DNA of 26,029 nt from a virus (IMGVR_UViG_2671180637_000024:1-26029), one strand, 5' to 3'. Shown: positions 12,293-26,029, counted from the stretch's first letter. Notes: a model not told the origin generated them from the letters alone. Numbers and translations are program-made.

Positions 12293-14270
12293 AACTATTA
12301 AAGATTTCCTCGTCTCGCTTGGCTTCAGTGTGGATGATGCAGGAGCGAAAAAGTTCGGTTCTGTCCTCGCCGGTACAACTGCAAATGTCATCAAAATGGG
12401 GCTGGCCGTTGAAGGAGCCGCGCTGTCCGTGGTGGCCTTCACGGCTAAGATCGCCTCCGGTCTGGATAATCTTTACTGGGCGTCACAGCGCACTGGAGCG
12501 ACAGTCCAGGGAATTCAGTCTATTGGCTATGCGGTTTCGCAGGTTGGCGGCAGCGTGGACGCTGCGCGATCTTCTCTGGAAAGCCTCTCCCGGTTTATTC
12601 GTAATAATCCCGGTGCAGAGGGATTTCTGAATCGCCTGGGGGTACAGACACGGGATGCCAGCGGTAACATGCGTGACATGGCCGCTATTTTTACAGGTGT
12701 AGGCCAGAAGCTCAGCGGCATGCCGTATTACCGGGCTAACCAGTATGCGCAGATGCTGGGCATTGACGAAAATACCCTTATGGCGATGCGTCGGGGTGTG
12801 GGTGGTTTCTCCGGGCAGTACAGCGCAATGGCGAAAGCTATCGGCTTCAATGCTGACGAGGCGGCCAGAAGCTCCAACAAATTTATGACCTCCCTGCGTG
12901 AGTTTAGCGCGATGGCAGGCATGGCCCGTGACAAAATCGGCTCTAATCTTGCGGGTGGACTTGCGGGGTCGCTGGACACCCTGCGCCGCCATATCCTGGA
13001 CAACTTCCCGCGCATCGAGCAGACTCTGACGAAAGCCATAAAAGGCATTCTGGCGCTCGGGGATATTATCGGGCGGCTGTTCTTCAGACTGATTGAGGGG
13101 ACATCAGGCCTTATCACCTGGTGGCAATCGCTGGATAAGCAAACGCGGGAGTTGATCTCGCTGTTTGGCGCACTGACGATTGCGCTGCGCATTCTGAACA
13201 GTACGTTCTGGATGTCGCCGATTGGCCTCATTACCGCGCTGGCGGCGGGGATTGCCCTCCTGTGGGAGGACTATCAGACCTGGAAGGAAGGCGGCGACAG
13301 CCTGATTGACTGGGGCAAGTGGAAACCGGAGGTCGATGCCGCGCTGAAGATGGTTCGTGACCTTAAAACAACCGTTAACGACCTGGTGAAAGCGCTGGCG
13401 AAACTGCTCAATATTGACCTCAAATCATGGTCCCTGAAGTGGGATTTCAGCAACTTCATCGACCAGATGGGCGAATTCAGCAAAATGCTGAACATGATCG
13501 CCGACCTGCTCAACGCTATCAAAGATGGCCGCTGGGCTGATGCCGTCAGCATCGGCAAACAGATACTTAATCAGGGCAGCGAAAATCCGTCAGCGATGCC
13601 GATGGTTACAGACAGCGCTAACAGTACTGCCGACTGGATTAAAGAGCACTGGGGATTCGATCCCCGCAGCGTGGGCCGGACGGTACGCGGCTGGTTTGGT
13701 GATGATGAGCCGGAACAACATGCACAGGCTACGAAACGAGGAGAACGGAATAACAATCCGGGAAACCTTAATTTTGCTGGTCAGGCAGGGGCTTCTCTTG
13801 AACGCCCGGGCGGGCGATTTGCCAGATTTGAAACTGCCTTTGATGGATTACGGGCTCTTGCTCGTCAGTTAATGCTGTACGCCGGACGGGGAATAAACAG
13901 TGTGGAGAAAATTATCTCTACCTGGGCACCTGCGTCTGATAATAACAACACAACTGCGTATATCAGGGCTGTATCGCAACGACTGGGAGTGGATCCCCGG
14001 GCTGCCCTGAATATGAGCGATCCGCAAACCATGTCAGCATTGATGAGCAGCATTATCCAGCATGAAAATGGAAGAAATATCTATTCTCGAGAGCTGATTA
14101 ATAAGGCTGCCGTGGCGGGAATTAGTGGCAAAATGACAGAGGTTAACCAGCAAAATACTTACCACATTTACGGTGGCGGAGATCCGCACGCTGTCGGTAA
14201 TGAGGTTGCACGTCGGCAACAGTCTGCAAATGCTCAGGTCATGCGAAGTAATCAGGTGAGGGTGGGTTAG
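12282..14270 (+). CDS. tail tape measure protein
   Basis: Long helical protein rich in A/G/L/S/M after the chaperone/frameshift pair; ATG at 12282 preceded by GGAGAGAGG is the likely start (ORF track start 12261). Confidence 0.8.
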   Translation: MNAETIKDFLVSLGFSVDDAGAKKFGSVLAGTTANVIKMGLAVEGAALSVVAFTAKIASGLDNLYWASQRTGATVQGIQSIGYAVSQVGGSVDAARSSLESLSRFIRNNPGAEGFLNRLGVQTRDASGNMRDMAAIFTGVGQKLSGMPYYRANQYAQMLGIDENTLMAMRRGVGGFSGQYSAMAKAIGFNADEAARSSNKFMTSLREFSAMAGMARDKIGSNLAGGLAGSLDTLRRHILDNFPRIEQTLTKAIKGILALGDIIGRLFFRLIEGTSGLITWWQSLDKQTRELISLFGALTIALRILNSTFWMSPIGLITALAAGIALLWEDYQTWKEGGDSLIDWGKWKPEVDAALKMVRDLKTTVNDLVKALAKLLNIDLKSWSLKWDFSNFIDQMGEFSKMLNMIADLLNAIKDGRWADAVSIGKQILNQGSENPSAMPMVTDSANSTADWIKEHWGFDPRSVGRTVRGWFGDDEPEQHAQATKRGERNNNPGNLNFAGQAGASLERPGGRFARFETAFDGLRALARQLMLYAGRGINSVEKIISTWAPASDNNNTTAYIRAVSQRLGVDPRAALNMSDPQTMSALMSSIIQHENGRNIYSRELINKAAVAGISGKMTEVNQQNTYHIYGGGDPHAVGNEVARRQQSANAQVMRSNQVRVG

Positions 14271-15161: not shown

Positions 15162-16223
15162 ATGTCACAGAACTGGATGAGACATTTCGAGCTGCAGCTT
15201 GTGGACGGGAACGGTCAGGGAATTGAGCTAAGTGATTTCAAAGTCACCTTTACGATCGACTGGTTCAACATCAGCAGCGCGTCCCGGGTAGGGACTATCA
15301 AAATTTATAACCTCTCGGCAGATACTGTGAACCGAATTACCGGGCAGGAGTTTTCGAAAGTGCGTCTGATTGCGGGTTACGACGGTATCGCGCCGGAGGG
15401 GTCGGCAAGCGACGTCGGGACAGTGCGGGAAGTTGACGCGGCGGACGTGGGCCAGAGTGATGGTCGCAACTACGGACTGATTTTCAGCGGTGAAATTCGC
15501 TACTCGGTCACAGGAAAAGACAGTCCGGTTGATTCCTACGTCCTGATTCAGGCAGCAGATACTGATCTGGCTTTTGCCACCAGTATAACCTCACAGACGC
15601 TGGCTGCCGGTTACACGGTCGCTGATGTGAACCGTGCGCTGATGAAAGACTTCGAAGCCAAAGGTGTGACCGAAGGCCTGACGCCTGAAATGCCTGCTAC
15701 TGTATTCCCCCGGGGGCGGGTACTCTTTGGCATGACGCGGCATCTAATGGATAACGTAGCCGGGCAATGTGGCGCAACATGGCAATTCGTGGACGGTCAG
15801 CGCCAGATGGTGGCGAATAACGAATATGTTCATGAAGCGATTGTGCTCAACAGCGCTACCGGGCTTATTGGCATGCCGCAGCAGACTATCGGTAACGGCG
15901 TAAACGTCCGCGCGCTTATTAATCCGAACATCCGGGTTAACGGACTTATTCTGCTGGATCAGGCTTCCGTGTATCGTACTGCCTTGTCGAACAACGATAT
16001 TGCGATGGCTGGTGGTCAGATCACCGACCAGAACACGGATGGAAATATCACGCTAAGCGGCACCACATCGCAGCCTGCCAGCATCGCAACGGATGGCGTT
16101 TATATTGTGCGCGGGATTATGTACACTGGCGACACAAGGGGCCAGGCGTGGTACATGGATATGATGTGCGAAGCGCGTGGCGCGGCGGATCTGTATACGC
16201 GATCGGCTTTGCAAAGGGGATGA
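15162..16223 (+). CDS. putative baseplate hub protein (P2 gpD / Mu gpP-like)
   Basis: 353-aa product between tape-measure-proximal genes and baseplate spike; size and position match hub proteins of P2/Mu-type tails. Confidence 0.55.
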   Translation: MSQNWMRHFELQLVDGNGQGIELSDFKVTFTIDWFNISSASRVGTIKIYNLSADTVNRITGQEFSKVRLIAGYDGIAPEGSASDVGTVREVDAADVGQSDGRNYGLIFSGEIRYSVTGKDSPVDSYVLIQAADTDLAFATSITSQTLAAGYTVADVNRALMKDFEAKGVTEGLTPEMPATVFPRGRVLFGMTRHLMDNVAGQCGATWQFVDGQRQMVANNEYVHEAIVLNSATGLIGMPQQTIGNGVNVRALINPNIRVNGLILLDQASVYRTALSNNDIAMAGGQITDQNTDGNITLSGTTSQPASIATDGVYIVRGIMYTGDTRGQAWYMDMMCEARGAADLYTRSALQRG

Positions 16224-16226
16224 GCA

Positions 16227-16568
16227 ATGAGGGGTATTATTTTTCTGTTAGCTGTCTTTTCTGCGTGCAGCGCGTGGGCGGATGGCTTCACGGTTAAATG
16301 CGGTGGCTACACTATGGTTGCAAACCAGGGCGAGTTATCGACTATCAACGGTGAAAGAGTTACCTCTCAAAAAATCACCGAACTGGGTACCAATGGTTTG
16401 AAAGTAGACATGGGGCTTATGCCTGCCAAAGACGGTAACAACTACGGCTTTGAATACATTCGTCGCCCTGGTACCGAAACGCGATTCCTGAATGTCCAGC
16501 TTCTGCAGAACAGCATGGATGCGCCGAAAATCATCGGATCTTTCCCTTGTAAAAAAGTGGCTGGGTGA
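16227..16568 (+). CDS. small exported protein (signal peptide; possible lipoprotein)
   Basis: N-terminus MRGIIFLLAVFSACSAWADG: hydrophobic core then either an AXA signal peptidase I site (AWA|D) or a lipobox-like FSAC; 113 aa; no structural-protein character. Confidence 0.55.
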   Translation: MRGIIFLLAVFSACSAWADGFTVKCGGYTMVANQGELSTINGERVTSQKITELGTNGLKVDMGLMPAKDGNNYGFEYIRRPGTETRFLNVQLLQNSMDAPKIIGSFPCKKVAG

Positions 16569-16661
16569 AGGTAACCTGAAATTCGTAACGCCTGAAAAAC
16601 AACAAAATGTGCTCTAAAAACTGTTGTTTTTTGAGACGAGCGATTACACTGCACTGACTTT

Positions 16662-16688
16662 TTGATGGTGGATTGCCATCGATATGCT
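16662..16688 (+). promoter_or_regulatory. candidate sigma70-like promoter for the accessory cassette
   Basis: TTGATG (16662-16667), 15-nt spacer, TATGCT (16683-16688), about 30 nt upstream of the cassette start codon; weak match, spacing suboptimal. Confidence 0.3.
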
Positions 16689-16717
16689 ACTTCATTAAAG
16701 CCAGGAATAACTAAAAC

Positions 16718-17449
16718 ATGAGTTTAGCGCAGCCAAAATCAGGAGAACTGTTAGATCTTCTGACTCCTTCATTAACTAAGGGTGAAAACCTTCTGAGTGA
16801 GTTTGAAATCCATCGAATCATTCGTGAAGCGAAGAAACTACCTGAACGTTATCAGGGGCTATCAATTGAAGGCTTAGCTAAGCTTGTTCTTGGTGAAATA
16901 GATGAAGGATGTTCACTCTGTGAGCGGGGGTTGAGAATAGCGCCTAACGATCCAGTTTCTTTTTGTAACTATACGATTGCGCTGCGTAACTTAGGTTTGC
17001 ATGCTCGCCAGTATGTGATGATTCAGAAAGCATCTGATTCACTTAATCCAACGATATTGGCTGAGGTTGCTACAATTTCTGCATACTGGGTTGATATCGA
17101 TTTGCTTGAAAAGGTGATGCCGATGCTAACTGCAATGGAAGTACCGCGCCCTGAAGATATGGGCAAATGGTATGACACGCTCAATTATCTGCATACCCAA
17201 AAAGATCATGCTCAGGAGCTAAAAACTATTGGGCGGCTCATGATGAACGTTGCAGAAAAGTACCGCGCTCGTCTTGCTGGCGCTCATGCTTTTTATGTAA
17301 TGTCAGAACTTGATACGCTGTTCGTTGAAGTCAAAACAGACGATCCAGTGCTTCTTTCGCAGATGAATAATGCCTTGGCTGATGAGATTATTATTGCGGG
17401 GCTTGCGGATTCAGAATGCGTCGGATGCTTTGAAGCCGGGGAACTCTAA
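16718..17449 (+). CDS. accessory cassette gene A: hypothetical helical protein (243 aa), candidate partner of the HEPN-like protein
   Basis: Clean ORF with AGGA upstream; lower GC than flanking tail genes; predicted mostly helical with a TPR-like stretch (GLRIAPNDPVSFCNYTIALRNLGLHARQ); no nucleotidyltransferase GS…DxD motif seen. Stop overlaps gene B start (TAATG). Confidence 0.6.
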   Translation: MSLAQPKSGELLDLLTPSLTKGENLLSEFEIHRIIREAKKLPERYQGLSIEGLAKLVLGEIDEGCSLCERGLRIAPNDPVSFCNYTIALRNLGLHARQYVMIQKASDSLNPTILAEVATISAYWVDIDLLEKVMPMLTAMEVPRPEDMGKWYDTLNYLHTQKDHAQELKTIGRLMMNVAEKYRARLAGAHAFYVMSELDTLFVEVKTDDPVLLSQMNNALADEIIIAGLADSECVGCFEAGEL

Positions 17450-17877
17450 TGTCGGTTGAGCATACCTGTTTTCTTGAATTGGCTAAGCATTCCCTGGCTC
17501 TAAACGGTGAGATGTGGACGAGAAATGCTATTAGCCGAGCATACTATGGTATGTACCATTCCGCCTTACGGATCACCAACAATCTGGTACCGACCGCTAC
17601 ACAAGATGGTGAAAAACTAAAAGGTGGAGTTCACATGCGAGTCTATACGGCCTTTTGTAGTGGTGAGGCAGCTGCACTTAACGATGTTGATGTTAACGCA
17701 GTAAAGAAAATCGGCGTTAAACTGAAAATGACGCATGCCCAACGTGTTAATTCTGATTACAAGCTTGAGCGGAAAATCAACCGGATTACCGCGAGAAGTG
17801 TAATTCTGGATGCGGAAGAGGTCGATGCAATCGTTAATCAATTACTGAAGATTGGTGATGACTCGTTAACTGCATAA
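17449..17877 (+). CDS. accessory cassette gene B: HEPN-like domain protein (142 aa)
   Basis: Contains SRAYYGMYHSALR (aa 29-41), GGVHMRVYTAF (aa 59-69) and RVNSDY (aa 99-104) followed by an acidic C-terminal helix; this matches my recollection of the classical HEPN consensus (SRAYYAMFHAAKALL … H … R..ADY). Assignment is from memory, not an HMM hit. Confidence 0.6.
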   Translation: MSVEHTCFLELAKHSLALNGEMWTRNAISRAYYGMYHSALRITNNLVPTATQDGEKLKGGVHMRVYTAFCSGEAAALNDVDVNAVKKIGVKLKMTHAQRVNSDYKLERKINRITARSVILDAEEVDAIVNQLLKIGDDSLTA

Positions 17878-17900
17878 GCTGAAATTTCTCAAAATTCAAA

Positions 17901-17923
17901 CCCGCCACTTGGCGGGTTTTTTG
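17901..17923 (+). terminator. rho-independent terminator downstream of the accessory cassette
   Basis: cccgcc-actt-ggcggg perfect 6-bp GC stem (17901-17916) followed by TTTTTT (17917-17922). Confidence 0.7.
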
Positions 17924-17941
17924 CTTTCTGGAGCCTACTAA

Positions 17942-18694
17942 ATGGCAGTATCTGACCAGACCCGCAGCGGCGACCTTGCCGAAACATTTAAATCCGAACA
18001 GGAAACAACAAAGAACCAGATCCGTGTCGCCTTGCCTGGCATTGTTCAGTCATTCGCTCCTGATGCGGTGACGGCGGTTGTACAGCCTGCTATCCGTTAC
18101 GTTGAAATTGATAACGACGGCAACCGCATTACCAAAAATTACCCATTGCTGGTGGATGTGCCAGTGGTATTCCCGCGTGGCGGAAGCTGTACGCTAACGT
18201 TTCCAGTTAAAGCCGGTGATGAATGTTTGGTGATTTTTGCCGATCGTTGTATTGATTTCTGGTGGCAGAGTGGCGGGATACAGGAGCCGGTCGATGACAG
18301 AATGCATGATTTATCGGATGCGTTTTGTATTGTCGGTCCCCAGTCGCAGGCAAGGAAGATTAGCGGTATTAATACCAGTGCCACACAGTTGCGTAGTGAT
18401 GACGGCAGCACCTATTTTGAGCTTAATCCTGATACCAGGAAAATTAAAATTGTCGCTCCGGGGGGCCTTGATGTGGTTGCCCCTCTGGCTGATTTTTCTG
18501 AGAAAGTAACCATTCATGGCCTGTTAACCTGGATGGGAGGCATGGTGGGGTCTGTTGTTTCTGGTGTGGCTTCAAAAATCACTGGTGCTGTTGAGTTTTT
18601 GGGTAGCGTGAAGGCTAACGGCAAGCCAATCGATGATACGCACACTCATGGTGGTGTTCAGCGCGGTGGAAGCAATACCGACGGAGTAAACTGA
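17942..18694 (+). CDS. baseplate spike / assembly protein V-like
   Basis: 250-aa product with glycine-rich C-terminus, directly upstream of W- and J-like baseplate genes (V-W-J-I order of P2/Mu-type baseplates); GGAG Shine-Dalgarno. Confidence 0.65.
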   Translation: MAVSDQTRSGDLAETFKSEQETTKNQIRVALPGIVQSFAPDAVTAVVQPAIRYVEIDNDGNRITKNYPLLVDVPVVFPRGGSCTLTFPVKAGDECLVIFADRCIDFWWQSGGIQEPVDDRMHDLSDAFCIVGPQSQARKISGINTSATQLRSDDGSTYFELNPDTRKIKIVAPGGLDVVAPLADFSEKVTIHGLLTWMGGMVGSVVSGVASKITGAVEFLGSVKANGKPIDDTHTHGGVQRGGSNTDGVN

Positions 18695-20246: not shown

Positions 20247-20923
20247 GCAAATACACCGAACTAATCACAAACTACCACGCCACCAAACCTAAATTTCTTT
20301 CACATGTTGATCTGATGACCAGGCCGCTTATTGATGTTGCGGCTGCCACCAGAGGGCTGATTACTGCATTTGATATTGACTCTGCGGTTGGTGTGCAACT
20401 TGACATTCTGGGATTGTGGATCGGACGTAGCCGTGTTGTCAGCCAGCCTATCTCAGGTGTCTATTTCAGTTGGGATACCGACGGGCTTGGATATGATCAG
20501 GGGGTATGGCAGGGGCCATATGATCCTGATTCCGGATACATGTATCTCAGCGATGAAACTTATCGTGTCATTCTTAAAGCGAAGATTGCGATTAATAACT
20601 GGGACGGACGTAATGATTCGCTTCCGGCAATTCTTGACGCGGCAACAGCAGGATCCGGGCTGCGAATGCAGATAGTCGATAACCAGGACATGACGATATC
20701 GGTCTGGGTCTTTCCTGATACTGATATTTCAGATGTATCGCGTGAGTTAATTGCGGCAATTAAACAGGGGTATCTCACAGTAAAAGCCGCCGGGGTATGG
20801 GCGGGGGGCATTGAAACTCCTTCGGTGGAAACCCCATCGGAAGGCTCAAAATTTTTTGGTTTTGATATGGATAACGAATTCATCAGTGGTTTTGATGTAG
20901 GAGCATGGGGAGTATTACTCTGA
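20243..20923 (+). CDS. tail protein I-like (baseplate wedge/tail fibre attachment)
   Basis: 226-aa product between J-like and tail fibre genes, ATGA coupling at both ends. Confidence 0.55.
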
Positions 20924-21717
20924 TGGCGAAAAATGACTTTAAAGCGTTTGCAACTGATCGAAATGCCAATGTTATGTCGCAGGAGGAATGGGAAGCGTTG
21001 CCTGCGCTTTTATCCGGATTTACAGCAGGGAAAGCATCCAGTGCGCAGGTGAACAAAGCCATTCGACAGGCCAGCTTTATTGCTGCAGCTTTGGCCCAGT
21101 TTGTAAGTGACAAAACGCAACGGGATGTGCTTGATAATGGTGATCTGCCCGGTTTTGTTGAATTGCTTGGATCGGGGTTTGCTGTTGAATACCTGAGCCG
21201 CAAAAATCCGTTTGGCGATATCAAATCGGACGGCACAGTGAAAACGGCTCTCGAAAACCTTGGTTTGGGAGAAGGTGCCCCAGCTATTGGCGTTCCGTTC
21301 TTCTGGCCCTCCGCGGCAATGCCAAATACTGTAATCGACAGCTGGTCCGGTATGGTGTTTTTGAAGTTCAACGGGGCGAAATTTTCTGCCTCTGATTACC
21401 CTGTGCTGGCGAAAGTGTTTCCTTCGCTGGTATTACCTGAAGCCCGCGGTGATTTCATTCGTATCTGGGATGACGGGCGAGGTGCAGATGGTGGTCGCGA
21501 ATTATTAAGCTGGCAGGAAGCTACAAACTTTTCTCAGTTTGCCGGGAATATAGGCGGAGGTGCGGGACACGCAATTAACTTTCATGATGGCATTGCCGGA
21601 AATCAGCCAGGATTTTCACGATTTAATTTCACCAGTAACTCTGTGGGTGATGGTGTGAATTTTGTTGCTGTCAGACCGCGAAATATTGCATTTAACTTTC
21701 TGGTGAGGGCTAAATAA
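20923..21717 (+). CDS. tail fibre protein (constant N-terminal part plus currently expressed variable C-terminal part)
   Basis: Precedes a tail fibre assembly gene; contains the left hix/gix-like crossover site in-frame at 21248-21273. ATG 20923 (ATGA overlap, GGGGAG upstream) preferred over ATG 20905. Confidence 0.7.
21248..21273 (+). repeat. left recombination (crossover) site of the invertible tail-fibre segment
   Basis: CTCTCGAAAACC-TT-GGTTTGGGAGAA resembles the hixL site as I recall it (TTCTTGAAAACC-AA-GGTTTTTGATAA); present in inverted orientation at 22994-23019. Confidence 0.6.
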
Positions 21718-22310
21718 TGAAACCTGTTTTTGATAAAAATGGGCTGGCTACAGTGCCGGGCGATATGCGTTGTTTTTATTATGATGCTGAAACATCTGAG
21801 TATACGGGCTGGTCTGATGAATATATTAATACTGGCGTAAGTATGCCCGCCTGTTCCACTGGTATTGACCCGGGCGAAAACATTCCGGGGAAAGTGGCAG
21901 TATTTACGGGTAAGGGATGGAGCCATGAAGAAGACCATCGCAATGAGACTGTTTACTCAACAGAAAATGGCGCAGCTGTTACAGTGGATTATATCGGTGC
22001 CATCAAAAACGGTTATGTCACGCTTTCACCGTTAACGACATATGATAAATGGGATGGTGAGAAATGGGTGACAGATACTGAGGCACAGCATAACGCCGCA
22101 GTAGAAGCAGCAGAAGCACAGCGCCAGTCACTGATTGATGCAGCAATGGCTTCCATTAGTCTGATTCAGCTGAAATTACAGGCCGGACGGAAACTGACTC
22201 AGGCAGAAACAACCCGACTTAACGCCGTGCTGGATTACATTGACGCGGTGACGGCAACAGATACCAGCACCGCGCCGGATGTCATCTGGCCTGAACTGCC
22301 GGAGGCGTAG
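21717..22310 (+). CDS. tail fibre assembly protein (expressed orientation)
   Basis: 197-aa product following the tail fibre gene with TAATG coupling; C-terminal TSTAPDVIWP motif shared with the oppositely oriented copy. Confidence 0.75.
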   Translation: MKPVFDKNGLATVPGDMRCFYYDAETSEYTGWSDEYINTGVSMPACSTGIDPGENIPGKVAVFTGKGWSHEEDHRNETVYSTENGAAVTVDYIGAIKNGYVTLSPLTTYDKWDGEKWVTDTEAQHNAAVEAAEAQRQSLIDAAMASISLIQLKLQAGRKLTQAETTRLNAVLDYIDAVTATDTSTAPDVIWPELPEA

Positions 22311-22710
22311 GCCATTCAATATCGGGTGCTGTTGACGTATCAACACGCATCAGCAGCACACGGTATTTCTTCCATTGGGTGAGAGCTGTAGCTTCTTCAT
22401 CAGTTGCGATATCAGCATCAACAGCATCCTGATGCCAGGATATTTCACTGTCAGCTTTTTCCCGTAATTGGGATTTTTTAACTTCAGCAATAGCTATTAA
22501 TTCCTTTTTGGTCGGCTGAGGAATATCTATCAGTGCTGGTTTTCCATTCAGTGTTCCAATCTGTTTTCCTGGTGGAATATCCATAAATAACTTTTTATGT
22601 TCTTCCTCACTGACTATTAAACCATCATCAGGCCACAGACCTGATGCCTCAAATTTTTCTTTCTCCGATATGGGGAAAAAGCCATTTGCTTTAGCGCTCC
22701 ATACGTACAT
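22282..22710 (-). CDS. alternative tail fibre assembly protein (silent orientation)
   Basis: 142-aa minus-strand ORF converging on and overlapping the + strand tail-fibre assembly gene by 29 nt; C-terminal TSTAPDIEWP motif; directly follows the alternative fibre segment. Confidence 0.7.
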   Translation of the reverse strand: MYVWSAKANGFFPISEKEKFEASGLWPDDGLIVSEEEHKKLFMDIPPGKQIGTLNGKPALIDIPQPTKKELIAIAEVKKSQLREKADSEISWHQDAVDADIATDEEATALTQWKKYRVLLMRVDTSTAPDIEWPTPPAVQAR

Positions 22711-22711
22711 A

Positions 22712-23005
22712 TCAATACCCCACCGCTATAATGTCCACATTAAATCCCCCGGGACCTGCCTGCCAGATGCTGGCCCCTGTTAATGATTTTGTTTGATGAA
22801 CAACCGCCACATTTGCTGGCGATAGTGTTTCAGTTGTTACAGTACCGATATCATTCCAGTTAATTGAGATGGAATAGTTCGTTGTTGTAAACGACCGGGG
22901 GAAAGTTATGTGTCTTGCATTGGTGCCAACAGGAAATCCAAGATAAACACGCTGAATTATCATTCCTCCAGGTAACATAACCCAGTTAGCACCTTCTCCA
23001 AAACC
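22712..23005 (-). CDS. alternative tail fibre variable C-terminal segment (promoterless; expressed only after inversion)
   Basis: Minus-strand frame …GFGEGANWVML… aligns with the + strand fibre at …GLGEGAPAI… exactly at the crossover site; inversion at the 2-bp core would give an in-frame fusion to the constant N-terminal 113 codons. Confidence 0.6.
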   Translation of the reverse strand, partial: GFGEGANWVMLPGGMIIQRVYLGFPVGTNARHITFPRSFTTTNYSISINWNDIGTVTTETLSPANVAVVHQTKSLTGASIWQAGPGGFNVDIIAVGY

Positions 23006-23019
23006 AACGTTTATGAAAA
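22994..23019 (+). repeat. right recombination (crossover) site of the invertible segment
   Basis: TTCTCCAAAACC-AA-CGTTTATGAAAA; its reverse complement matches the left site over TTGGTTTnGGAGAAGGTGC (19 of 20). Confidence 0.6.
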
Positions 23020-23073
23020 TGCAGAAATAACGAGCAAATGGCATCATTCCTGCTTTTGTCAGGGAGATCTACC

Positions 23074-23628
23074 ATGCTTATTGGCTATGTACGTGTGTCA
23101 ACAAATGACCAGAACACAGATCTACAACGTAATGCGCTGAACTGTGCAGGATGCGAGCTGATTTTTGAAGACAAGATAAGCGGTACAAAGTCCGAAAGGC
23201 CGGGGCTGAAAAAACTGCTCAGGACATTATCGGCAGGCGACACACTGGTTGTCTGGAAGCTGGATCGGCTGGGGCGCAGTATGCGGCATCTTGTCGTGCT
23301 GGTGGAGGAGTTGCGCGAACGAGGCATCAACTTTCGTAGTCTGACTGATTCAATTGATACCAGCACACCAATGGGACGCTTTTTCTTCCATGTGATGGGT
23401 GCCCTGGCTGAAATGGAACGTGAACTGATTGTTGAACGAACAAAAGCAGGACTGGAAGCTGCTCGCGCACAGGGACGAATTGGGGGACGTCGTCCCAAAC
23501 TTACACCAGAACAATGGGCGCAGGCCGGGCGATTAATTGCATCAGGCGTTCCTCGCCAGAAGGTGGCGATCATCTATGATGTTGGCGTATCGACTTTGTA
23601 TAAGAAGTTTCCGGTCGGAGATAAATGA
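23074..23628 (+). CDS. site-specific DNA invertase, serine recombinase (Hin/Gin/Cin/Pin family)
   Basis: N-terminus MLIGYVRVSTNDQNTDLQ with the catalytic serine context, plus C-terminal HTH GRRPKLTPEQ…VGVSTLYKKFP, closely matching Hin/Gin as I recall them; ATG 23074 with AGGGAG upstream (ORF track start 23038). Confidence 0.9.
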   Translation: MLIGYVRVSTNDQNTDLQRNALNCAGCELIFEDKISGTKSERPGLKKLLRTLSAGDTLVVWKLDRLGRSMRHLVVLVEELRERGINFRSLTDSIDTSTPMGRFFFHVMGALAEMERELIVERTKAGLEAARAQGRIGGRRPKLTPEQWAQAGRLIASGVPRQKVAIIYDVGVSTLYKKFPVGDK

Positions 23629-23688: not shown

Positions 23689-24558
<870 letters not shown>

Positions 24559-25276: not shown

Positions 25277-26029
25277 GTGGATGATATGGCAACTACATGT
25301 TCAGTTATATTGATTTTGGAGTCCTTTGATGTTTATTTCGGAAAAGAGAGTGTGTTTCTGGAGAGAGGTTCATCTGTACTTGTCGACTCTAGCTCTAGAG
25401 ATTTTTTCCTGACATATCCTGAAAGAGTGATAGTGGCGGATTTTGGCGCTGAGTTTATTAGTCGCTATTTGAAAGCTAATAACTTAAGGGATATTTCTGA
25501 TTGTAGGGAATATCCATCTTATTTAAAAATAAACTTTGCTGACTTCAGTTTAATTAAAGGATTAATTAGTTGGGCTAATCACTGTGCTGAATACATAGAA
25601 ATTTTTGATGAGTCTATTGCTTTTACATGTCTCTCTGCATTTTCTTCTGAAAAACAATTTGGAGTATTTCTGTTTGGATGTTTGAAAAGCACAGGGGCTA
25701 AAGTTAAAACGATTATTCATACGGATTTATCTGCACCATGGCGTCTTAAGGATATATCATCAAGATTATATCTCAGCGAAAGTTTACTAAAGAGGAAATT
25801 GAAAGAAGAGGGGGTATCATTCAGTAAGATCATACTTGATGAGAGGATGCAAATGGCTGAATATTTACTCAGCACTCGTTGTTATCCTATTAGTAAAGTA
25901 GCTAAGGTCTGTGGTTATGCCAGTGTCTCATACTTTACTTATGTATTTAGACGTTATTTTGGTGTTTCTCCAAGTCAATACTCTCAGAGGAGTTCAGAAA
26001 GTAAAATTCTTACTCACCAGGGAATCTGA
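25277..26029 (+). CDS. AraC/XylS-family transcriptional regulator
   Basis: C-terminal region …ISKVAKVCGYASVSYFTYVFRRYFGVSPSQY… is a typical AraC-type HTH; AT-rich gene in AT-rich flank outside the prophage; stop at the window end. Confidence 0.7.
   Translation: MDDMATTCSVILILESFDVYFGKESVFLERGSSVLVDSSSRDFFLTYPERVIVADFGAEFISRYLKANNLRDISDCREYPSYLKINFADFSLIKGLISWANHCAEYIEIFDESIAFTCLSAFSSEKQFGVFLFGCLKSTGAKVKTIIHTDLSAPWRLKDISSRLYLSESLLKRKLKEEGVSFSKIILDERMQMAEYLLSTRCYPISKVAKVCGYASVSYFTYVFRRYFGVSPSQYSQRSSESKILTHQGI

Follow-up and report, generated by a model that had tools for sequence, protein, structure and literature searches.

A small exported protein encoded between the baseplate hub and spike genes of enterobacterial prophages: a candidate periplasmic factor in superinfection exclusion

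Why would a temperate phage keep a gene for an exported protein among the genes of its baseplate? We addressed this question for a 113-aa open reading frame (ORF) at positions 16227-16568 (+) of a 26,029-nt stretch of viral DNA (IMGVR_UViG_2671180637_000024:1-26029), which is referred to here as the window. The window holds the late region and the right end of an E. coli prophage. It encodes, in order, an Rz-like spanin, terminase, portal, capsid, sheath and tape-measure proteins, then a Dit-like protein, plug, baseplate hub, spike, sheath initiator, and baseplate J and wedge proteins, and finally tail fibres with an invertible segment, a DNA invertase and a host AraC-type gene. The stretch from hub to spike is 99% identical to many E. 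coli chromosomes and has relatives in Salmonella phage SEN34 (Brunovirus), Yersinia phage YP3, the induced E. coli phages vB_EcoM-xxxR and Klebsiella prophage-derived phages. By sequence, the element that carries the small gene is a SEN34/Brunovirus-like E. coli prophage, from a lineage of temperate myoviruses, and all phage records with a homologue appear, judged by their names and sources, to be temperate phages or induced prophages. Such prophages are common, as the hub gene occurs in approximately 400 of 5426 complete E. coli genomes.

The small gene, its family and its position in the tail module

The ORF has an ATG start, its product begins MRGIIFLLAVFSACSAWADG, and both frame and translation agree with those given in the first-pass annotation of this DNA. 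Its start lies 3 nt past the stop codon of the hub gene (TGA, 16221-16223), and a Shine-Dalgarno-like sequence, AAGGGGA (16213-16219, +), is found 8 nt 5′ of the ATG. The product matches phrog_3443 (E 8.4e-48, residues 2-112), its sole match in PHROG, and an identical protein, WP_001214055.1, is annotated across many E. coli genomes, in one RefSeq genome under the PGAP name 'STY1065/STY2022 family phage-derived protein'. Homologous protein clusters numbered 396 in a single-sequence search and 591 in a profile search; all were from Enterobacterales, and every one was annotated 'hypothetical'. The PHROG match, these clusters and the identical annotated protein together identify the ORF as a real gene rather than a chance reading frame. 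The family is nevertheless narrow, since a profile search that covered 1.8 billion representative proteins exhaustively returned only 39 representative clusters, although the small gene occurs in at least 20 enterobacterial genera. Three giant repeat proteins found in the representative search (P0144, P0157 and P0159) carry Ig, PKD or Listeria-Bacteroides repeats and were treated as spurious partial matches.

Scans of the small protein against Pfam, NCBIfam (release 20.0) and PADLOC gave no match, a PDB sequence search with a 40-sequence profile returned only noise at E values up to 10, and neither Pfam nor PHROG contained a structural-family match. These results agree with the earlier view that the product has no resemblance to baseplate components. 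Both phrog_3443, which the protein matches over its full length, and STY1065/STY2022 are catalogue names without an assigned function. Our literature search on STY1065/STY2022, on SEN34 and on exported proteins encoded within baseplate modules brought up no data on function, and the STY1065/STY2022 genes are not listed in the supplements of an S. Typhi RNA-seq paper. The family is therefore catalogued but uncharacterised. In SEN34 itself (NC_028699; positions 2571-2912 of locus L004) the annotated 77-aa SEN34_20 is a truncated call, and its frame extends upstream to just past the hub stop codon, apparently with a TTG start, to give a full homologue of about 113 aa.

To place the gene in its context, we surveyed loci from phage records, from E. 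coli genomes with divergent hubs and from contigs with homologues of 28-30% identity, as well as 40 further loci from contigs representing one genome per species in about 25 species. The genera covered include Pantoea, Photorhabdus, Yersinia, Serratia, Erwinia, Rahnella, Citrobacter, Enterobacter and Kosakonia. In the window, the upstream neighbour is the baseplate hub gene (15162-16223, +; PHROG phrog_196 'baseplate hub', E 3.9e-88, with a weak Pfam match to E217_GP41, E 2.5e-4) and the next tail gene downstream encodes the membrane-puncturing spike (17942-18694, +; Pfam spike N-terminal domain, E 1.2e-42, plus an Apex motif). Across some 50 loci in about 25 species of Enterobacterales, a homologue with 25-100% identity is nearly always found directly 3′ of the hub gene, its start within a few bases of the hub stop codon or overlapping it, and in nearly all of these loci the plug and hub genes come first, followed by the small gene, 0-3.6 kb of variable DNA and then the spike and sheath initiator genes. 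The earlier description of an exported gene inside the baseplate module is thus borne out as to location, between the hub and spike genes. Because the same slot is filled in essentially all relatives examined, the small gene is the fixed anchor of a variable cargo slot and not an occasional insert. In two loci, from Pantoea stewartii (L026, 5001-6039) and Photorhabdus khanii (L033), a small gene is present without a recognisable hub or plug gene upstream, and in the former a spike-like gene follows the small gene after only 16 nt; these may be prophage remnants or rearranged tail modules.

Similarity between loci stops at the stop codon of the small gene. The interval that follows (16569-17925 in the window, and its equivalents in loci L002-L055) holds 36 clusters of cargo proteins in 44 loci, mostly encoded on the same strand. 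Among them are Phd/Doc and YafO toxin-antitoxin proteins, an Mrr-type nuclease, a T5orf172 protein and HEPN-like proteins, together with small membrane proteins and further exported proteins. The window has two cargo genes, one at 16718-17449 (+) that is low in GC, is present in some loci only and encodes a 243-aa product (phrog_22649, with a weak TPR match), and one at 17449-17877 (+) for a 142-aa product (phrog_5176, with a weak HEPN-like match, PADLOC HEPN_IX, E 0.009). This low-GC pair recurs in Pseudocitrobacter (L020) and Citrobacter (L028), with related pairs in L054 and L055, and may be a two-gene toxin or defence module. The GC content of the small gene (0.48) is intermediate between those of the hub gene (0.54) and the cargo (0.44). 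At the end of the prophage, just before the host AraC-family gene (25277-26029), a gene at 23689-24513 (-) encodes 274 aa that include a LEM-3-like GIY-YIG nuclease domain (Pfam E 4e-14, phrog_5356); this may be another cargo or defence gene.

Export and predicted fold of the small protein

The N-terminus of the small protein has the layout of a signal peptide, with a basic residue (R2), a hydrophobic stretch (I4-F11) and A16-W-A18 at positions -3 to -1, and signal peptidase I (SPase I) is predicted to cleave after A18. The signal peptide would thus comprise residues 1-18 (MRGIIFLLAVFSACSAWA; 16227-16280, +), and the mature periplasmic domain would run from D19 to G113 (16281-16568 with the stop codon, +), a basic polypeptide of about 95 aa and 10 kDa. 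In 153 full-length homologues the N-terminal sequence drifts freely while the basic/hydrophobic/A-x-A layout is kept, with an A-x-A-type site in 152 of them, and A18 is invariant in the homologue alignment. The clear N-terminal signal sequence noted in the first-pass annotation is therefore a property of the family.

That annotation had left open whether cleavage is by SPase I or, at the FSAC sequence, by SPase II. The family largely settles this in favour of SPase I. A cysteine before the conserved C25, as at the Cys14 position of FSAC, is absent from 120 of the 153 homologues, and a lipobox is found in strict form in one and in loose form in 17, the window allele being one of these: its F-S-A-C, with the cysteine at residue 14, is only a loose match to the lipobox pattern [LVI][ASTVI][GAS]C. 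Since the A-x-A site and A18 are kept while Cys14 is mostly missing, cleavage by SPase I is well supported as the family rule, and the predicted product is a soluble, Sec-exported periplasmic protein. Lipidation does not appear to be a property of the family and would be at most an extra of single alleles, that of the window included. One 292-aa variant (P0142), which occupies the same genomic slot, is extended by an N-terminal domain and bears a proper LSGC lipobox; by these features it is a true lipoprotein fusion. Its presence in this slot implies that tethering to the envelope is compatible with function and that the site of action is the cell envelope.

Apart from L88, the only residues that are fully invariant down to 25% identity are C25 and C108. 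A first AlphaFold2 run on a shallow alignment of 16 close homologues gave a pLDDT of 54 and was unusable, but an alignment of 40 sequences that included distant members gave an all-beta, up-and-down barrel of eight strands with a pLDDT of 84.7. The small protein is accordingly predicted to be an eight-stranded beta-barrel without a specific structural relative. The first and the last strand of the predicted barrel carry C25 and C108, which, being invariant as well, probably form a disulfide in the periplasm that closes the barrel. The mature protein contains three conserved stretches, INGE-VTSQK, DGNNYGF and LNVQLLQNSMDAPKIIGSFPCKK, and a hypervariable hairpin at residues 25-40. Going by strand order and secondary structure, the conserved loops INGE-VTSQK, PA-DGNNYG and QNSMDAPK would share one end of the barrel, and strand order would put the hairpin after C25 at the opposite end, together with two loops that bear indels.

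Transcription signals and sequence divergence

A candidate sigma-70-type promoter (TTTATA, 17 nt, TACACT; 16099-16127, +) lies within the hub coding sequence, with a predicted transcription start near 16134, approximately 93 nt 5′ of the ATG of the small gene. The motif TTTATA-17-TA(C/T)ACT was present in all nine of the loci first examined, at -127 to -143 from the start of the small gene. Among 46 unique hub 3′ ends there are 73 conserved degenerate codons, and the third base is invariant in only two of them, Tyr161 (TAT, 46/46) and Thr169 (ACT, 45/45). Each of the two lies inside one of the candidate hexamers, the third base of the Thr169 codon corresponding to the most conserved T of a -10 element. 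As the hexamers hold only four of the 73 third positions, the chance of such a coincidence is about 0.002. The match to the promoter consensus is weak, at 8-9 of 12 positions; the copy in the window matches at 8 of 12 and falls under the cut-off of the scanning tool. In the -35 hexamer, the invariant T is a mismatch to the consensus and the first base varies. Taken together, the codon pattern makes an internal promoter in the hub gene likely. A P2-type late promoter (TGT-N12-ACA) in the conserved hub segment was also considered and was dropped, as the TGT is not conserved in other variants.

At the other end of the cargo, a tool scan identified an intrinsic terminator (17898-17925, +), consisting of AAACCCGCC-ACTT-GGCGGGTTT followed by a T run, about 20 nt 5′ of the spike ATG. 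A terminator is found at the same place in other loci, with a perfect stem in 41 of 49 and a near-perfect one in six more, and its stem shows compensatory changes (ACCCGC/GCGGGT, ACCTGC/GCAGGT and AACCCAGC/GCTGGGTT). In a Rahnella locus (L050), the terminator alone fills the 65 nt that separate the small gene from the spike gene. Bracketed by the promoter-like element and the terminator, the small gene and its cargo thus appear to form a transcription unit of their own within the tail operon. An equally good reading of the terminator is as an attenuator by which the ratio of tail to baseplate gene expression is set. Between the terminator and the spike ATG there are only about 20 nt with a conserved GGAG (17926-17941 in the window, and equivalents). 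This leaves no room for a promoter, so that the spike gene and the later baseplate and fibre genes must rely on read-through of a terminator that looks strong, perhaps by antitermination or partial termination.

Compared with a moron in the sense of Juhala and Hendrix, the small-gene unit is alike in having its own terminator, and its conserved promoter-like sequence (TTTATA-17-TAYACT), a weak match to consensus, may correspond to the prophage-active promoter of such an element. It differs in that the small gene is not an add-on of deviant GC content, since it is present in essentially all relatives at a GC of 0.48; the genes downstream of it do fit that description.

The small gene has diverged more than its setting. 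In pairs of loci whose hub C-termini are at least 90% and spike N-termini at least 85% identical, the mature small proteins are only 63-80% identical in 37 of 48 cases, which strongly supports, at the level of sequence comparison, a faster evolution of the small gene than of the genes flanking it. The hairpin, taken from C25 to the ING motif, has a mean identity of 41%, compared to 62% for the rest of the protein. Chimeric small-gene alleles exist, and in Serratia aquatilis (CP173186; L043, 4431-9343) seven tandem copies of the small gene are found between hub and spike, along with an IS transposase gene. Six of these copies are full length and one is truncated, and all have a signal-peptide-like N-terminus; in the full-length copies the C-terminal halves are nearly identical while the hairpins have diversified. 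Divergence together with a tandem array is a pattern that would be expected of specificity genes or of immunity-type, conflict genes.

We then asked which neighbour the small protein might have evolved with. Its pairwise identity correlates with that of the hub C-terminus (r 0.65) and the spike N-terminus (r 0.62), and weakly or not at all with that of the tape-measure protein, the plug, the spike C-terminus (r ~0) or baseplate J. The correlations of about 0.6 are explicable by linkage. A search for a cognate partner among the tape-measure, Dit, plug, hub, spike, gp25, J and wedge proteins found covariation with linked neighbours only, and the hairpin covaried with none of them.

Possible functions in the cell envelope

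The reading that we favour, with a probability of roughly 40%, is that the small protein acts in the periplasm and stops phage entry at the stage of penetration. The gene could be expressed in two ways: with the tail genes late in infection, as suggested by its tight coupling to the hub stop codon, and alone from the internal promoter, plausibly in the lysogen. Once a related phage had pierced the outer membrane, its tail tip would meet the barrel in the periplasm, and the barrel would then block penetration or DNA entry, which would amount to superinfection exclusion at the penetration step. The conserved end of the barrel may contact a constant partner and the hypervariable hairpin end may provide specificity. 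Candidate targets are the spike/hub complex and an endolysin-like hydrolase at the C-terminus of the tape-measure protein.

Several observations are in favour of such an entry block: the position of the gene is fixed beside the hub and spike genes, which encode the penetration device, the cargo, mostly on the same strand, is of a type expressed in lysogens, and the phage carries a peptidoglycan hydrolase delivered by its tail. On the other hand, much of the mature protein is very strongly conserved, which is unusual for a protein engaged in an arms race, and the tight coupling to the hub gene would also suit a purely late function. The first-pass annotation had proposed a factor for superinfection exclusion or receptor masking. 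Of these two, exclusion remains the leading hypothesis because the product appears to be exported and not a baseplate component, its gene lies in a separately transcribable unit and its evolution is of the conflict type. Receptor masking has lost ground, given that the fibre genes are 4.3 kb away and that the lipobox is not a feature of the family.

The tail hydrolase is suggested by the tape-measure protein itself, the C-terminal part of which (13730-14135, residues ~493-625) matches the solved endolysin 7q47_A (E 1e-13); from this match we infer that the tail carries its own peptidoglycan hydrolase. The same part also matches Gp29 of entry 9vvp (E 1.5e-20), and a Pfam search of it found no domain. 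In phage T4, Spackle is a periplasmic protein with a disulfide that binds the tail lysozyme gp5 (PMC7677548). The small protein would share with Spackle its small size (75-95 aa when mature), a cleaved signal peptide, a periplasmic location and one disulfide, all of these being predictions for the small protein, and by analogy also the logic of disabling the device with which an incoming phage's tail tip penetrates the cell. The two differ in that Spackle is an alpha-helical bundle, whereas the small protein is predicted to be an all-beta barrel and has no sequence similarity to it, and in that Spackle is an early gene of a virulent phage located away from the baseplate genes, whereas the small gene belongs to temperate phages and is fixed between hub and spike. 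A Spackle-like inhibition of the hydrolase is conceivable, but covariation with the tape-measure hydrolase domain, which was not seen (r 0.10 for the hairpin and 0.34 for the whole protein), lends it no support. Nor did the small protein match the MliC/PliC lysozyme inhibitors in Pfam at E values up to 0.1.

A second comparison is with gp15 of HK97, the exclusion specificity of which maps to the tail of the incoming phage (PMC3594210). Like the small protein, gp15 is a small envelope protein encoded in a tail operon with signals for separate transcription. However, gp15 is an inner-membrane, YebO-related protein and an 'add-on' absent from relatives, whereas the small protein is predicted to be soluble in the periplasm, its relatives are confined to prophages, and it occurs in essentially every related phage examined. 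By analogy, then, phage-encoded envelope exclusion proteins are what the small protein resembles most, and it would resemble them in logic only.

Alternatively, the protein may have a periplasmic role for the phage itself, being made with the tail proteins and acting during or after lysis, for example by neutralising the phage's own tail hydrolase, by stopping progeny from firing on envelope debris or by modulating lysis. A start 3 nt past the hub stop codon, or overlapping it elsewhere, implies that the gene is co-translated with late genes; in its fixed position in the lineage it resembles a core gene, and the tape-measure protein has an endolysin-like domain. We nonetheless consider this unlikely, as the window encodes a normal lysis cassette with an Rz-like spanin elsewhere, expression outside the late operon is suggested by the conserved terminator and the promoter-like element, and fast, allele-swapping evolution and a seven-copy array are hard to fit to a housekeeping function.

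Still less likely is an envelope factor that serves the fitness of the host, like Bor, Lom or phage-borne SodC, by binding a conserved envelope molecule to the benefit of the lysogen (stress or serum resistance, or colonisation) and without acting on phages. The predicted barrel has one end that changes very little from genus to genus and is rich in N, D, Q, Y and K (INGE-VTSQK, DGNNYGF, QNSMDAPK), as would be expected if it bound a conserved host ligand, for instance a glycan, and the unit looks expressible in the lysogen. Fitness cargo, however, usually moves between phage types, whereas this family is seen only in one slot of one tail module (39 clusters among 1.8 billion proteins, with every examined locus syntenic), and the hypervariable hairpin and tandem array suggest a partner that varies.

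The protein could also be an outer-membrane lipoprotein of the Llp/Cor type, lipidated at Cys14 and acting from within the periplasm to inactivate the receptor. T5 Llp and Cor of phi80/N15 are, like the small protein, small exported phage proteins that could protect a lysogen or infected cell from reinfection; they are outer-membrane lipoproteins encoded beside receptor-binding genes and inactivate FhuA. The F-S-A-C of the window allele, the similar loose lipobox in about 12% of homologues and the 292-aa variant with a proper LSGC lipobox would be in keeping with this type, as would the action of Llp, which is exerted on the periplasmic face of FhuA (PMC9586334). These points are outweighed by the absence of Cys14 from 120 of 153 homologues, a single strict lipobox and a universal SPase I site, and phrog_3443 is the sole PHROG match, with no match to Llp or Cor families in Pfam or PHROG. 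The analogy had been drawn from adjacency to receptor-binding genes, and here it fails: the neighbours of the small gene are hub and spike, beside which it is fixed, and the fibre genes (20905-22310) lie 4.3 kb away. The fibre region (20905-23628) has a + strand tail fibre and assembly gene facing - strand genes for an alternative fibre end and its assembly, with the DNA invertase gene (23038-23628) adjoining them, which has the appearance of a Mu/P1-style invertible host-range switch. Fibres with such an invertible segment and invertase usually bind LPS, which a periplasmic protein cannot mask, and this further argues against receptor inactivation. We consider an Llp/Cor-type protein improbable.

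Finally, it is very improbable that the protein is a virion or assembly component whose uncleaved hydrophobic N-terminus is a membrane-active or anchoring segment of a tail-tip protein, despite its lineage-fixed position between hub and spike and its co-inheritance with them (r ~0.6), since the signal-peptide layout is canonical with an A-x-A site conserved through sequence drift, the pair of invariant cysteines would suit a protein that folds oxidatively in the periplasm, a lipoprotein-fused variant exists, there is no structural-family match, and a cryo-EM study of the distantly related E217 omits gp42 from the virion proteins, gp42 being in any case unrelated. E217 gp42, encoded by the single gene between hub and tip, had been considered as an analogue and was rejected (177 aa, no signal peptide, unrelated).

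Returning to the block of phage entry, a bolder version of it, possible though doubtful, is that the small protein is the founding member of a family of phage periplasmic 'specificity barrels' that are expressed in the lysogen, are encoded beside the membrane-piercing device and recognise incoming tail tips by the hairpin so as to stop them in the periplasm, with the transcription unit doubling as a landing pad at which this widespread prophage lineage of Enterobacterales gathers and expresses defence cargo within its tail operon. If the entry block is correct, the small protein would represent a new fold and a new family for superinfection exclusion, and a rare case of an exclusion gene fixed beside the genes of the penetration device, with a hairpin that could be used to study or re-target specificity. 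Whatever the function of the small gene, the arrangement of promoter, small gene, cargo and terminator is a predictable hotspot of toxin-antitoxin, nuclease and HEPN-type genes inside a tail operon, and as such it may help in the search for defence genes and in assessing how susceptible clinical strains are to phages.
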